Source: a virus
Taxonomy: Duplodnaviria; Heunggongvirae; Uroviricota; Caudoviricetes
Direction: 5' to 3' (one strand)
Length of the DNA: 7,255 bases
IMG/VR virus record: IMGVR_UViG_2706794667_000003
The notes below the pieces were generated by a model that did no database searches, was not told the DNA's origin, and worked only from the letters and a program-made list of their open reading frames with translations. Shown one piece after another: positions 1-7,255 of the stretch (the stretch's first letter is position 1; each line of letters begins with the position of its first letter). The translations under genes were made by a program, and so were the position numbers.

Positions 1-69
1 CTTTAGAGTAACGTTGGGTTTTTCTGCTCATTATTAGCTCCTTCTGATGCCATTCTATTTCAGGAAGGA

Positions 70-435
70 GTGTCCGTTAAACTCAGGCTACCTCAGTCTG
101 CTGATTTGAGTCGCTACAGTGGCACGGTGGTTAACCGTCCGACGTTTTTTGCTTTTGCAAAAGGCGCGGGTGTGATGGGGGAAGCGGGACCTGAAGCCAT
201 TCTGCCACTGCGTCGCGGTGCTGATGGTAAGCTGGGGGGTGTGGCGGATACTGGTGGTTCAGGCATGGTGATGTTTGCCCCGCAGTACAACATTGAGATC
301 AATAACGATGGCACGAACGGGCAGATAGGTCCGGCTGCCCTGAAGGTGGTTTATGACCTCGGGAAAAAAGCGGCCGCGGACTTTATGCAACAGCAGGCCC
401 GTGATGGTGGCCGGTTAAGTGGAGCATACCGGTAA
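70..435 (+). CDS. H: Tail tape measure protein (lambda gpH-like), C-terminal ~121 codons only; possibly a 3' remnant
   Basis: ORF ends with TAA at 433-435, overlapping the ATG of the gpM homolog (TAATG), the arrangement expected at an H/M junction. Gly-rich C-terminal sequence (GADGKLGGVADTGGSG) is typical of tape measure C-termini. The frame is closed by TAG at 4-6 and all three + frames have stops within nt 1-40, so only the last ~121-143 codons are open. The track start is GTG at 70 with a GGAAGGAG motif immediately adjacent, which is too close for a normal RBS. Confidence 0.55.
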   Translation: MSVKLRLPQSADLSRYSGTVVNRPTFFAFAKGAGVMGEAGPEAILPLRRGADGKLGGVADTGGSGMVMFAPQYNIEINNDGTNGQIGPAALKVVYDLGKKAAADFMQQQARDGGRLSGAYR

Positions 436-764
436 TGGAGACGTTTCACTGGAAAGTGCGCCCGGATATGAATGTGGTATCAGAGCCGAAAGTGGTGACA
501 GTGAAGCTGGGCGATGGTTATGAACAGCGTCGTGCGGCGGGACTGAATAACCAGTTGTCGACTTACAGCGTGAAGATACGTGTTCGTAAAGGTGAACACC
601 CATTTTTAAAAGCCTTTCTGGAACGGCACGGTGGCGTCCGCGCATTTCAGTGGACGCCACCTTATGACTGGAAGCCGATCAGGGTGGTTTGTCGTAAATG
701 GTCGGCAAGCGTGGGGGCGTTGTGGGTAACCATAACGGCAGATTTTGAACAGGTCGTGGCATAG
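435..764 (+). CDS. M: Tail tip assembly protein M (lambda gpM homolog), 109 aa
   Basis: Translation METFHWKVRPDMNVVSEPK...FLERHGG...WTPPYDW...CRKWS...DFEQVVA matches lambda gpM as recalled, with the same length (109 aa). Its start overlaps the H stop, and it sits directly upstream of the L homolog. Confidence 0.9.
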   Translation: METFHWKVRPDMNVVSEPKVVTVKLGDGYEQRRAAGLNNQLSTYSVKIRVRKGEHPFLKAFLERHGGVRAFQWTPPYDWKPIRVVCRKWSASVGALWVTITADFEQVVA

Positions 765-773
765 GAGGCTCTG

Positions 774-1472
774 ATGCAGGATATTCCACAGGAAACACAT
801 CATGAGACGACACGCCTCACTCAGTCAGCCCAGGTGGTGCTCTGGGAAATCGATCTGACAGAGGTCGGTGGTGAACGTTATTTTTTCTGTAATGAGCAGA
901 ACGAAAAAGGTGAGCCGGTTACCTGGCAGGGGCGGCAGTATCAGGCATACCCCATTCAGGGGACGGGATTTGAACTGAACGGCAAGGGCAGTGCTGCCCG
1001 TCCGACACTGACGGTTTCTAACCTGCACGGAATGGTCACCGGGATGGCGGAAGACCTGCAGAGTCTGGTCGGCGGAACGGTGGTCAGGCGTAAGGTTTAC
1101 GCCCGTTTTCTGGATGCGGTGAACTTCGTCAACGGAAACAGCGACGCCGATCCGGAACAGGAGGTGATCAGCCGCTGGCGCATCGAGCAGTGCAGCGAAC
1201 TGAGCGCGGTCAGTGCCTCTTTTGTGCTGGCCACACCAACGGAGACGGATGGCGCGGTTTTCCCGGGGCGTATCATGCTGGCGAATACCTGTATGTGGAC
1301 TTACCGTTCTGATGAGTGTGGTTACACGGGCAGGGCAGTGGCTGACGAGTTCGACAAACCAACGACGGATATCCGGAAGGACAAATGCAGCAAGTGTATG
1401 CGCGGGTGTGAGTTGCGCAACAATACCGGTAATTTCGGCGGTTTCCTTTCCATCAATAAACTTTCTCAGTAA
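774..1472 (+). CDS. L: Tail tip protein L (lambda gpL homolog), 232 aa, with C-terminal Cys cluster
   Basis: Translation MQDIPQET...VVLWEIDLTEVGGERYFFCNEQNEKGEPVTWQGRQYQAYPIQGTGFELNGKG...FGGFLSINKLSQ is nearly identical to lambda gpL as recalled, with the same length. AGGAGG lies 5-10 nt upstream of the ATG. Cysteines in CMWTYRSDECGY...DKCSKCMRGCE are consistent with the Fe-S cluster site described for gpL. Confidence 0.9.
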   Translation: MQDIPQETHHETTRLTQSAQVVLWEIDLTEVGGERYFFCNEQNEKGEPVTWQGRQYQAYPIQGTGFELNGKGSAARPTLTVSNLHGMVTGMAEDLQSLVGGTVVRRKVYARFLDAVNFVNGNSDADPEQEVISRWRIEQCSELSAVSASFVLATPTETDGAVFPGRIMLANTCMWTYRSDECGYTGRAVADEFDKPTTDIRKDKCSKCMRGCELRNNTGNFGGFLSINKLSQ

Positions 1473-2220: not shown

Positions 2221-2562
2221 AAACGGGGGCTGAAGCCATCCGGGCACTGGCCACACAGCTCCCGGCGTTTCGTCAGAAACTGAGTGACGGCTGGTATCAG
2301 GTGCGCATTGCCGGGCGTGATGCAGGTGAAACCGAATTGTCTGCCCGTCNNNNNNNNNNNNNNNNNNNNNNNNNNNNNNNNNNNNNNNNNNNNNNNNNNN
2401 NNNNNNNNNNCGTATTTCTCGTCACTGGATAACATGGTTGCCCAGGGCAATGTTCTGCCCGTTCTGTACGGTGAAATGCGCGTGGGGTCACGTGTGGTTT
2501 CTCAGGAGATCAGCACGGCAGACGAAGGGGATGGTGGTCAGGTTGTGGTGATTGGTCGCTGA
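2118..2562 (+). CDS. I: Tail tip assembly protein I (lambda gpI homolog), interrupted by a 61-nt N run; N- and C-terminal segments are in different frames as given
   Basis: N-terminal segment 2118-2349 translates MAATHTLPLASPGMARICLYGDLQRFGRRIDLRVKTGAEAIRALATQLPAFRQKLSDGWYQVRIAGRD..., matching lambda gpI as recalled. C-terminal segment 2411-2562 translates ...YFSSLDNMVAQGNVLPVLYGEMRVGSRVVSQEISTADEGDGGQVVVIGR*, matching the gpI C-terminus. The two segments are offset by one frame, so the N run does not preserve length. The start is embedded in the 3' end of K, as in lambda. Confidence 0.75.
2350..2410. other. Run of 61 ambiguous bases (N): assembly gap or masked segment inside gene I
   Basis: Direct observation of n characters from 2350 to 2410. 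Flanking coding frames differ (start at 2118 is frame 0, stop at 2560-2562 is in frame 1). Confidence 0.95.
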
Positions 2563-2622: not shown

Positions 2623-5600
2623 ATGGGTAAAGGCAGCAGTAAGGGGCATACCCCGCGCGAAGCGAAGGACAACCTGAAATCCACGCAGTTGCTGAGTGTG
2701 ATTGATGCCATCAGCGAAGGGCCGGTTGACGGTCCGGTGGATGGATTAAAAAGCGTGCTGCTGAACGGTACGCCGGTCCTGGACAGCGAGGGGAAGACAA
2801 ACTTTTCCGGTGTTACGGTGGTGTTCCGTGCAGGTGAGCAGGAGCAGACACCGCCGGAGGGTTTTGAATCCTCCGGCTCCGAGACGGTGCTGGGTACGGA
2901 AGTGAAATATGACACGCCGATCACCCGGACCATCACGTCGGCAAACATCGACCGTCTGCGCCTGACCTTCGGTGTGCAGGCACTGGTGGAAACCACCTCA
3001 AAGGGTGACCGGAATCCGTCGGAAGTCCGCCTGCTGGTTCAGATACAGCGTAACGGTGGCTGGGTGACGGAAAAAGACATCACCATTAAGGGCAAAACCA
3101 CTTCGCAGTATCTGGCCTCGGTGGTGGTGGGTAACCTGCCGCCGCGCCCGTTTAATATCCGGATGCGCAGGATGACACCGGACAGCACCACAGACCAGCT
3201 GCAGAACAAAACGCTCTGGTCGTCGTACACCGAAATCATCGATGTGAAACAGTGCTACCCGAACACGGCGCTGGTCGGCGTGCAGGTGGATTCAGAGCAG
3301 TTCGGTAACCAGCAGGTGAGTCGCAATTATCATCTTCGCGGGCGCATTCTGCAGGTGCCGTCGAACTATAACCCGCAGACGCGGCAATACAGCGGTATCT
3401 GGGACGGAACGCTTAAGCCAGCATACAGCAACAACATGGCCTGGTGTCTGTGGGACATGCTCACTCATCCGCGCTACGGCATGGGGAAACGTCTTGGTGC
3501 GGCAGATGTGGACAAATGGGCGCTGTATGTCATCGGCCAGTACTGCGACCAGTCAGTGACGGACGGATTTGGCGGCACGGAGCCGCGCATCACCTGTAAC
3601 TCTTACCTGACCACACAGCGTAAGGCGTGGGATGTTCTCAGTGATTTCTGCTCGGCGATGCGCTGTATGCCGGTATGGAACGGACAGATGCTGACGTTCG
3701 TGCAGGACCGACCGTCGGATAAGGTGTGGACCTATAACCGCAGTAATGTGGTGATGCCGGACGATGGCGCGCCGTTCCGCTACAGCTTCAGCGCCCTGAA
3801 GGACCGCCATAATGCCGTTGAGGTGAACTGGATTGACCCAGATAACGGCTGGGAGACGGCGACAGAGCTTGTGGAGGATACGCAGGCCATTGCCCGTTAC
3901 GGTCGTAATGTCACGAAGATGGATGCCTTTGGCTGTACCAGCCGGGGGCAGGCACACCGAGCCGGGCTGTGGCTGATTAAAACGGAACTGCTGGAAACGC
4001 AGACCGTGGACTTCAGCGTGGGCGCAGAAGGGCTTCGCCATGTACCGGGTGATGTCATTGAAATCTGCGATGATGATTATGCCGGTATCAGCACCGGTGG
4101 TCGCGTACTGGCGGTGAACAGCCAGACCCGGACGCTGACGCTCGACCGTGAAATCACGCTGCCGTCCTCCGGTACCACGCTGATAAGCCTGGTTGACGGA
4201 AGTGGCAATCCGGTCAGCGTGGAGGTCCAGTCCGTCACCGACGGCGTGAAGGTGAAAGTGAGCCGGGTTCCTGACGGCGTTGCAGAATACAGCGTGTGGG
4301 GGCTGAAGCTGCCGACGCTGCGCCAGCGTCTGTTCCGCTGCGTGAGTATCCGTGAGAACGACGACGGCACGTATGCCATCACCGCCGTGCAGCATGTGCC
4401 GGAAAAAGAGGCCATCGTGGATAACGGGGCACACTTTGACGGTGACCGGCGCGGCACGGTGAATGGTGTCACGCCGCCAGCGGTGCAGCATCTGACCGCC
4501 GAAGTCACCGCAGACAGCGGGGAATATCAGGTGCTGGCGCGATGGGACACGCCGAAGGTGGTGAAGGGTGTGAGCTTCCTGCTTCGCCTGACCGTGGCAG
4601 CGGACGACGGCAGTGAGCGGCTGGTCAGCACAGCCAGGACGACGGAAACCACATACCGCTTCAGGCAGCTGGCGCTGGGGAATTACAGTCTGACAGTCCG
4701 GGCGGTAAATGCCCGGGGGCAGCAGGGCGATCCGGCGTCGGTATCGTTCCGGATTGCGGCACCGGCAGCGCCTGTCACTATTGAACTGATACCGGGGTAT
4801 TTTCAGATAACGGCGGTCCCGAAACTGGCTGTATATGACCCGACGGTGCAGTTTGAGTTCTGGTTTTCGGAAAAGCGGATTGCGGATATCAGGCAGGTTG
4901 AAACCAGCGCCCGCTATCTTGGCACGGCGCTGTACTGGATAGCCGCCAGTATCAATATCAGGCCGGGCCATGATTATTATTTTTACGTTCGCAGTGTGAA
5001 CACCGTTGGCAAATCGGCATTTGTGGAGGCCATCGGTCGGGCGAGCGATGATGCAGAAGGTTATCTGAATTTTTATAAAGGGTTGATCAATAAAACGCAT
5101 CTCGGCAAGGAGTTGTGGACGCAGATTGATAACGGTCAGCTTGCGCCGGACCTGACTGAAATCAGGACGTCCATTACGAATGTCAGCAATGAAATCACGC
5201 AAACCGTCAATAAAAAACTGGAAAATCAGAGTGCTGCAATCCAGCAGATACAGAAAGTTCAGGTTGATACAAATAATAACCTGAACAGCATGTGGGCTGT
5301 GAAGCTGCAACAGATGAAGGACGGACGCCTTTATATTGCGGGTATCGGTGCCGGTATTGAGAATACGCCAGCAGGAATGCAGAGTCAGGTGCTGCTGGCG
5401 GCAGACAGGATTGCGATGATTAATCCTGCGAATGGCAACACAAAGCCGATGTTTGTTGGTCAGGGCGATCAGATATTCATGAACGACGTGTTCCTGAAAT
5501 GCCTGACGGCTCCGACCATTACCAGCGGCGGTAATCCTCCGGCATTTTCCCTGACACCTGGCGGACGGCTGACGGCGAAAAATGCCGATATCAGCGGTAA

Positions 5601-6102
5601 CGTGAACGCGAACTCCGGGACGCTCAACAACGTCACGATTAATAAGAACTGTCGGGTTCTGGGAAAATTGTCCGCGAACCAGATTGAAGGCGATCTCGTT
5701 AAAACAGTGGGCAAACCTTTCCCACGGGACTCCCGGGCACCGGAGAGGTGGCCATCAGGGACCATTACCGTCAGGGTTTATGACGATCAGCCGTTTGATC
5801 GGCAAATTGTTATTCCCGCGGTGGCGTTTCGCGGTGCTAAACATGAGCGGAAGAATAACAATATTTATTCGTCATGCCGCCTGATAGTGAAGAAAAACGG
5901 TGCTGAAATTTATAACCGAACGACCCTGGATAATACGCTGATATATACGGGTGTTATTGATATGCCTGCCGGTCACGGTCACATGACGCTGGAGTTTTCT
6001 GTATCGGCATGGCTGGTAAATGGCTGGTATCCCACAGCAAGTATCAGCGATTTGCTGGTTGTGGTGATGAAGAAAGCCACTGCAGGCATCACGATTAGCT
6101 GA
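2623..6102 (+). CDS. J: Tail tip host-specificity / central tail fibre protein J (lambda gpJ homolog), 1159 aa, with divergent C-terminal receptor-binding region
   Basis: Translation [54 protein letters not shown]... is near-identical to lambda gpJ as recalled over roughly the first 800 aa. GAGGA RBS lies 4 nt upstream of the ATG. Length is similar to lambda J (about 1130 aa). The last ~350 aa keep only islands of similarity ([58 protein letters not shown]). Confidence 0.92.
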
Positions 6103-6169: not shown

Positions 6170-6769
6170 ATGCGTAAAGTTTGTGCAGCCATTTTGTCCG
6201 CAGCCATCTGTCTGGCCGTATCCGGTGCGCCTGCATGGGCGTCTGAACATCAGTCCACGCTGAGCGCCGGGTATCTTCAGACCCATACTGATATGCCAGG
6301 CAGCGATGACCTGAAGGGCATTAACGTGAAATACCGTTATGAGTTTACGGACACGCTGGGGCTGATTACGTCATTCAGTTATGCCAACGCTGAAGATGAG
6401 CAAAAAACGCATTACAGCGATACCCGCTGGCATGAGGATTCCGTGCGTAACCGCTGGTTCAGCGTGATGGCGGGGCCGTCTGTGCGCGTGAATGAATGGT
6501 TCAGCGCGTATGCGATGGCGGGCGTGGCTTACAGCCGTGTGTCGACCTTCTCCGGGGATTATCTCCGCGTAACTGACAACAAGGGGAAAACGCACGATGT
6601 GCTGACCGGAAGTGATGGCGGTCGCCACAGCAACACGTCTCTGGCGTGGGGGGCTGGCGTGCAGTTTAACCCGACCGAATCCGTGGCCATTGACCTTGCT
6701 TATGAAGGTTCCGGCAGTGGTGACTGGCGCACTGACGGTTTCATCGTGGGTGTCGGTTATAAGTTCTGA
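6170..6769 (+). CDS. lom: Lom outer membrane protein (Ail/Lom/PagC/OmpX family beta-barrel), 199 aa; lysogenic-conversion moron
   Basis: N-terminal signal peptide MRKVCAAILSAAICLAVSGAPAWA. C-terminus ...AYEGSGSGDWRTDGFIVGVGYKF ends in the Phe typical of beta-barrel OMPs and matches the lambda Lom C-terminus as recalled. GAGAGG RBS lies 7 nt upstream. The gene is flanked by hairpin terminators and sits at the lambda lom position between J and stf. Confidence 0.9.
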   Translation: MRKVCAAILSAAICLAVSGAPAWASEHQSTLSAGYLQTHTDMPGSDDLKGINVKYRYEFTDTLGLITSFSYANAEDEQKTHYSDTRWHEDSVRNRWFSVMAGPSVRVNEWFSAYAMAGVAYSRVSTFSGDYLRVTDNKGKTHDVLTGSDGGRHSNTSLAWGAGVQFNPTESVAIDLAYEGSGSGDWRTDGFIVGVGYKF

Positions 6770-6796
6770 TTAGCCAGGTAACACAGTGTTATGACT

Positions 6797-6822
6797 GCCC
6801 GCTGGTTCAGGCGGGCTTTTTG
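6797..6822 (+). terminator. Rho-independent terminator downstream of lom
   Basis: Stem GCCCGC (6797-6802) / GCGGGC (6811-6816) with loop TGGTTCAG, followed by TTTTTG. Confidence 0.6.
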
Positions 6823-6832
6823 TGGGGTGAAT

Positions 6833-7159
6833 ATGGCAGTAAAGATTTCAGGTGTACTGAAAGATGGGGCGGGTAAACCTGTCGTAAATTGTGCGATTGA
6901 ACTGCGGGCCAGAAGAACCAGTCCGACCGTTGTGGCACACGTTGTTGCCACTTGCGTGACGGACAATAACGGTGCTTATGTGATTGAGGCTGAGCCGGGG
7001 TATTACGAGGTTGCGCTTCACTGTAACGGCTGGCAGCCAACCCGTGTCGGGGATATTGATGTGGCACCGACTGATGCACCGGGGACACTGAACGCGTTTC
7101 TGAATGCACCAAAGGATGGTGATTTACGTCCGGAGGTGATGAAGTGTCAGCGCCAGTGA
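6833..7159 (+). CDS. stf: Side tail fibre protein, N-terminal domain only (lambda Stf / orf-401 N-terminus homolog), 108 aa; truncated or recombined relative to full-length stf
   Basis: Translation MAVKISGVLKDGAGKPVVNCAIELRARR... matches the lambda Stf N-terminus (MAVKISGVLKDGTGKPVQNC... as recalled). Similarity continues to ...PGTLNAFL...RPEV, then the ORF ends (MKCQRQ*) at 7157-7159. GGGGTGA RBS lies 5-6 nt upstream of the ATG at 6833. The upstream in-frame ATG at 6791 lies inside the lom terminator hairpin and is unlikely to be the start. Confidence 0.65.
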   Translation: MAVKISGVLKDGAGKPVVNCAIELRARRTSPTVVAHVVATCVTDNNGAYVIEAEPGYYEVALHCNGWQPTRVGDIDVAPTDAPGTLNAFLNAPKDGDLRPEVMKCQRQ

Positions 7160-7245
7160 TATAAGACGGTAATTCGCCATTTGGATTGTCCGCTCCACCC
7201 AACATGTTGTTTCCTTAAGGTTCTCACACCAGAAAGGACATCAAC

Positions 7246-7255
7246 ATGCTGAGCA
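7246..7255 (+). CDS. First codons (MLS...) of an unidentified ORF running off the 3' edge of the window
   Basis: ATG at 7246 is preceded by GAAAGGA at 7232-7238 (7-nt spacing). Only 3 codons are visible, so no identification is possible. Confidence 0.2.

Follow-up and report, generated by a model that had tools for sequence, protein, structure and literature searches.

Tape measure proteins of the lambda gpH type are described from the viable phage mEp460, from cdtI and HannyBb and from others, and are covered by the models TIGR01541, PF06791 and PF09718. In mEp460 the protein is 1021 residues long and contains the domains TMP_2 (residues 228–426), TMP_4 (616–693) and Tape_meas_lam_C (811–885). 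At loci of this type the stop codon of the tape measure gene H overlaps the start of the minor tail gene M in the motif TAATG, and L, K, I, J and lom follow in canonical order. The second system that concerns us here is IS600, an element of the IS3 family (IS3 group) and one of five insertion sequences that have expanded in all Shigella species, where the expanded elements disrupt genes and cause deletions between homologous copies (PMC7373316). As a reference for an undisrupted arrangement we used the prophage that lies beside sitABCD in E. coli FDAARGOS_944 (NZ_CP065613.1, 5.018–5.047 Mb; locus L008 below).

We analysed the left edge of a 7,255-nt stretch of DNA (the window), in which the gene order from M on is the same as in the reference prophage and in mEp460. 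It is highly probable that nucleotides 1–435 represent the junction of IS600 with the 3′ stump of the tape measure gene H, in a defective lambdoid prophage beside sitABCD of Shigella sonnei from which about 15 kb has been deleted. The features on which this reading is based, in the window and in one of the complete chromosomes described below (locus L004), are collected in Table 1.

Table 1. Features at the junction of IS600 with gene H. Positions are those of the window unless locus L004 is named.
Feature	Position	Strand	Details
IS600 (IS3 family) left end	1..95	-	Element positions 95 to 1, orfA leader included; rest of the element beyond the window edge
IS600 terminal inverted repeat, TGAGG...	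95 down to about 69	-	Inside the IS600 left end
Sigma-70-like promoter match, TTAACG-17-TAGAAT	52..80	-	Consensus match only, putative function; points to orfA, away from the tail genes
IS600 orfA start	ATG at 31-29	-	First 10 codons MSRKTQRYSK; matches the N-terminus of the 100-aa orfA product
Junction microhomology, CA	94..95		Fits the IS600 terminus (...CCTCA) and intact H (...ACCAGTCTG)
Chimeric 121-aa ORF from GTG at 70	70..435	+	Codons 1-8 from the IS600 inverted repeat, codons 9-121 from H
3′ remnant of lambda-type tape measure gene H	96..435	+	Codons for residues 909-1021 of 1021 aa, and TAA
Minor tail protein M, intact	435..764	+	PF05939 Phage_min_tail, E 5.7e-39, full length
Partial IS600 touching H	L004 7276 to 6795/8		Element positions 1 to 479-482 (479-482 bp)
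Complete IS600	L004 6797 to 5535		Same orientation as the partial copy, which it directly adjoins
Q-tRNA region	L004, abuts the far end of the complete IS600		Matches the late-regulatory segment of lambdoid prophages at 98% identity

We examined the reading frames and composition at the window edge. Frame 1 contains a TAG at 4–6 and is then open up to the TAA at 433–435, which shares bases with the ATG of M at 435–437. Frame 2 is closed by a TAG at 35 and frame 3 by a TAA at 9, so that stops occur within nucleotides 1–40 in all three forward frames, as the initial annotation had read them. The same annotation had described the first ~69 nucleotides as AT-rich and unlike a tape measure gene, which agrees with a G+C content of 39.1% in nucleotides 1–69 versus 56.5% in nucleotides 96–435 and with the assignment of nucleotides 1–95 to IS600. 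It had set the discontinuity at about position 70, but the end points of the IS600 and H matches place the real junction at 95/96. Alignment of nucleotides 1–435 to the 3′ end of H, the check that had been proposed, located this breakpoint: IS600 homology spans nucleotides 1 to 95, and tape measure homology begins at nucleotides 93–94. The CA at 94–95 is common to both partners, and the breakpoint therefore lies between 93/94 and 95/96. Both matches are far beyond what chance could produce. Frame 1 stays open over nucleotides 7–95 because the IS600 end happens to have no stop there in that frame.

The element at the edge has no differences from IS600 as expanded in Shigella and EIEC, nucleotides 1–95 being identical to the left ends of those copies. 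The same 95 nucleotides match positions 1–95 of the full 1263-bp IS600 copy in L004 at 95/95 positions. A megablast search with window 1–100 against 5,426 complete E. coli genomes found 6,068 places, the best 100% identical, and the best matches are annotated as ‘IS3-like element IS600 family transposase’. Within the window IS600 is limited to these 95 nucleotides, which hold codons 1–10 of orfA and the left inverted repeat (IRL) ending ...CCTCA at nucleotide 95. The minus strand of this segment opens with TGAGGTAGCCTGAGTTTAACGGACAC, and along it the inverted repeat is followed by the promoter-like TTAACG-17-TAGAAT, by a GAAGGAG ribosome-binding site and by the ATG of orfA. The IS600 transposase reads leftward, away from the tail genes. 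In a consensus promoter scan of window 1–800 this minus-strand match was the sole site; no forward promoter-like site was found in that interval, hence none upstream of the ORF that starts with GTG at 70. We considered an outward promoter from the IS600 end into the H remnant and rejected it, given that window 1–800 holds no forward consensus match.

The full upstream copy in L004 has TG...CA termini, with IRL TGAGGTAGCC... and right inverted repeat (IRR) TGAGGTGTAC..., which are imperfect inverted repeats matching at 20 of their first 30 positions. Its orfA product of 100 aa matches PF01527 and NF033516 (HTH), and its orfB product of 272 aa (DDE) matches rve and, at 334 bits, NF033516. Ahead of the orfA stop (element position 367), the copy has an A7G slippery site at position 316, and the fused product, 385 aa long, has been annotated in several genomes. 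Identity, terminal repeats and the two-ORF frameshift layout (the latter two seen on the upstream full copy) thus all place the element in IS600 and the IS3 family. In contrast to the usual IS600, what borders H is the 5′ part of a copy, which adjoins a second copy that is complete.

On the other side of the junction, nucleotides 94–435 match the 3′ end of H of E. coli prophages, annotated as ‘phage tail tape measure protein’, with up to 99.7% identity (E 2e-176). Pairwise alignment with an intact H gives complete identity from CAGTCTG on and none before it. The remnant protein is identical to residues 909–1021 of the mEp460 tape measure at 110 of 113 positions (97%), and is likewise close to the tape measures of cdtI, HannyBb and others. 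Since M overlaps the H stop, just as at other loci of the gpH type, the remnant is in its native position. The gene is cut after codon 908 of about 1021, so that 11% of the protein is kept and 89% lost, and every recognizable TMP Pfam domain (mEp460 residues 228–885) lies upstream of the break. For this reason a Pfam search of the 121-aa ORF gave no match, and TIGR01541 aligned to it, from ORF residue 9, over model positions 258–332 only (the last 75), at 81.8 bits versus a cutoff of 104.75. Unlike gpH-type loci, this one therefore codes for no Pfam TMP domain, and its G/T chaperone, tail tube, terminator, head and lysis genes are missing. The initial annotation had argued that a functional lambda-type tail needs a tape measure of roughly 850 residues; it is correct that none is complete here, but the close relatives measure 1021 residues. 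As it stands, the remnant has neither the 850–1020 residues nor the TMP domains of a functional tape measure, nor a place between G/T and M. The H stump is a pseudogene that has lost the whole length-determining body, and not a tape measure.

The upstream context was read from near-identical public chromosomes, found by an exact look-up of the J protein, and not from the window's own contig. We retrieved six loci with 10-kb flanks from five complete chromosomes of ~4.8 Mb, assigned to S. sonnei by the protein names in the collection. The window aligns with these loci at 99.9–100% identity; its first 2349 nucleotides differ from the chromosomes at two positions (1797 and 1803), neither of them in 1–435, and the 80-nt junction (window 61–140) is exact in 6/6 loci. 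The junction is absent from the 5,426 complete E. coli genomes, where no place covers at least 80% of nucleotides 1–435, and an exact 40-nt junction pattern has no match among GTDB species representatives. In all six loci the order from upstream to downstream is Q, tRNAs, full IS600, partial IS600 and H′, the IS600 pair being oriented opposite to the tail genes. The Q-tRNA region carries genes for DUF1367, DUF1364 and a DUF1133/Q-like antiterminator and for tRNA-Ile/Arg/Thr/Gly. In the stretch L004 4832–5534, upstream of the window, the left deletion breakpoint is situated just downstream of the Q-like antiterminator and the tRNA cluster. In Stx phages, the segment after the Q-like antiterminator and tRNA cluster is where stx is carried.

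In none of the six complete loci are G, T, V, U, Z or further H present upstream. The initial annotation had suggested looking there for the rest of H, for G/G-T and V/U, or for an IS; what lies upstream of H′ is IS600, in 1.4 copies, and beyond it the Q-tRNA region. Neither a continuation of H in a shifted frame nor a full-length H ending elsewhere, the two findings that it had named as contrary to a truncation, occurs in the locus. Its reading of a short 3′ remnant of H, left in a prophage with an internal deletion or with a foreign element, is supported by an IS600 that abuts H and by a gap of 15.1 kb.

The extent of this gap was taken from one E. coli genome, FDAARGOS_944, that has both flanks within one prophage, in the same order and orientation. 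On the left, this prophage shares DUF1367, DUF1364, the Q-like DUF1133 protein and the Ile/Arg/Thr/Gly tRNAs with the S. sonnei locus; on the right, it shares the 3′ end of H, M, L, K, I, J, lom, a tail fibre gene, DUF4376 and sitD, with nucleotide identities of 93–98%. In contrast to the S. sonnei locus, it keeps the 15.1 kb from the holin gene to H, several genes of which are annotated as frameshifted, and has no IS600 at either breakpoint. The left breakpoint maps to L008 3449, 182 nt past tRNA-Gly and 111 nt ahead of the holin gene, and the right one to L008 18558, 2,699 nt into the 3,041-nt H. The interval L008 3450–18557 (15,108 bp) is absent from L004, a length that is approximate for the true ancestor, as L008 is 93–98% identical and partly frameshifted. 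The gap comprises the lysis and packaging genes (holin, lysozyme, an Rz-like lysis gene, small and large terminase) and the head genes (portal, a protease-capsid fusion and head-tail joining genes). It further contains one gene for a minor tail protein of the U family and two more genes annotated ‘phage tail protein’ (tail terminator/tube), the genes for the tail assembly chaperones G and T, and the 5′ 89% (2.7 kb) of H. None of the genes of the 15,108-bp gap was found within 10 kb on either side in the retrieved chromosomes, and sit-type ABC transporter genes lie downstream in these chromosomes too.

We also surveyed the remainder of the window and its surroundings in the chromosomes. A run of 61 N (window 2350–2410) falls in the overlap region of the tail-assembly genes K and I, where the six complete loci hold 258 bp (L004 9531–9788); beyond the run the window numbering is therefore off by 197 nt from the real sequence, and gene I is unreadable across it. 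J (window 2623–6102, 1159 aa, with all GpJ Pfam domains) and lom (6170–6769, 199 aa, Ail_Lom) are both uninterrupted though the prophage is dead, and this exact J sequence recurs in 1,582 blocks of the public collection. The window closes (last ~120 nucleotides, ~7135–7255) with the istA-side end of an IS21-like element, which matches E. coli copies at about 99% identity and truncates the N-terminal ORF of a tail fibre at 6791–7159. In the chromosomes this IS21-like piece (L004 14513–14947) is itself cut by another IS600 at L004 14947. Contigs of 7182–7248 nt are the source of partial forms of the H′ ORF.

Within 4 kb downstream of lom, IS600 is present twice more (L004 16887–18063 and 14947–16216): a minus-strand copy is complete, and a plus-strand copy spans element positions 88 to about 1263. 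Both are flanked by the tail-fibre remnant on one side and by the DUF4376 gene and the sit-type transporter genes on the other. With these copies, the prophage is fragmented by at least four copies of IS600, by IS1 and by the IS21-like element. In CP019689.1 (loci L005 and L006) the unit at L005 5500–14920, which contains IS600, partial IS600, H′, M, L, K, I, J, lom, stf′ and IS21′, is repeated at +9417 bp, twice in tandem; the repeat is due either to tandem duplication mediated by IS600 or to an error of assembly.

A simple insertion of IS600 would give the same picture within a window of 7 kb, namely an IS end next to a gene; H would then be whole apart from the insertion, its remaining part and the entire morphogenetic operon would follow just past the element, and precise excision could restore a functional prophage. 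In the chromosomes, the gene does not resume past the element: it is the Q-tRNA region, and not H, that lies beyond the IS600 pair in the six loci from five complete chromosomes. There is also no 3-bp target-site duplication, the IS600 composite being bordered by GTG next to the tRNAs and by GTC next to H, and the 15,108 bp of syntenic prophage are absent; a simple insertion is thus extremely improbable. The window also begins in IS600, ends in an IS21-like repeat and contains a run of N, as is typical of a short-read scaffold, and its end might in principle have been collapsed or mis-joined at the repeated IS600, giving a junction that does not exist in the cell. The probability of such an artefact is close to negligible, as the exact 80-nt junction recurs in six loci from five independent complete chromosomes and the chimeric ORF on hundreds of contigs.

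The remaining alternatives concern function. An exact-sequence look-up of the 121-aa ORF that starts with GTG at 70 found it on 440 contigs, under the names ‘hypothetical protein SSON_1768 [Shigella sonnei Ss046]’ and ‘tail length tape measure protein [Shigella sonnei]’. Across the junction the IS-derived residues MSVKLRLP are followed by QSADL (junction peptide MSVKLRLPQSADLSR). The ORF is a chance product in which sequence from the IS end is fused to the frame of H. We rejected its reading as a separate conserved small gene, because homology to H begins at residue 9 and residues 1–8 are IS600. The initial annotation had offered as an alternative that a C-terminal fragment is expressed from GTG at 70, which is weak in view of the IS600-derived start and of the lack of a forward promoter-like site. 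It is very unlikely that SSON_1768 is a real, expressed and free-standing C-terminal fragment kept for a function such as interaction with the M/L/J tail-tip proteins. Its ORF is uninterrupted and 97% identical to the C-termini of functional phage tape measures, it is called as a gene in public annotations on all those contigs, and a purine run (AGGA/GGAG) precedes the GTG. However, the GGAG overlaps the GTG with essentially no spacer, and the start is accidental, the first eight codons being IS600 inverted repeat; there is no forward promoter-like site upstream, and IS600 orfA with its promoter-like site reads leftward, away from the ORF. Near-identity among the copies that were read, together with the lack of the junction in the complete E. 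coli genomes, is compatible with shared descent no less than with selection, and the locus keeps no other tail shaft, head or lysis genes as partners. Independent expression of a meaningful C-terminal fragment of H thus appears unlikely; that the fragment is not expressed we infer. A broader proposal is that the whole tail-tip block (H stump, M, L, K, I, J and lom) is kept by selection and not by recency, as a store of host-range genes with which incoming lambdoid phages could recombine or for Lom/J surface functions, with the chimeric SSON_1768 perhaps coming from a fortuitous outward-reading signal in the IS600 end. This proposal would fit, because J is unchanged in its 1,582 blocks and the block is in tandem in one chromosome, but we give it little credence.

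The preferred reading, a deletion at IS600 that left the 3′ stump of H, allows a course of events to be proposed that is the simplest one. One IS600 may have inserted into H, and a second one would then have inserted into the first at about position 480. The interval between could have been lost through homologous recombination of the full copy with a further IS600 of the same orientation near the tRNA cluster, or alternatively by an IS-end-mediated adjacent deletion. The sequence past the right end of the full IS600 copy is not the remainder of the truncated copy. The composite shows no target-site duplication because its flanks derive from two sites 15 kb apart. We infer both the order of events and the recombination mechanism from an end state that fixes neither. 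Inversion or translocation in place of deletion was judged unlikely, as the order and orientation of the two flanks agree with those in the intact relative.

Without 89% of the tape measure and without the tail tube, chaperone, head, packaging and lysis genes, the prophage cannot assemble tails or virions on its own. The question of whether it can make tails, which the initial annotation had raised, is therefore answered in the negative for this prophage. In addition, the late operon (M-L-K-I-J-lom) is severed from Q and the pR′ late promoter by two oppositely oriented IS600 units.

The junction is already known, being contained in the published Ss046 genome as an annotated CDS, and involves no new biology. 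All its components can be assigned to known ones at 97–100% identity, namely IS600, the lambda/mEp460-type tape measure and the sit-adjacent lambdoid prophage. The locus illustrates how annotation pipelines come to call spurious ‘tape measure protein’ CDSs, SSON_1768 among them, where an IS meets a gene, and it explains the ~7.2-kb short-read contigs of S. sonnei that run from IS600 to an IS21-like repeat. In S. sonnei it adds a further documented instance of genome decay driven by IS600, here as the ordinary IS-driven decay of a prophage.
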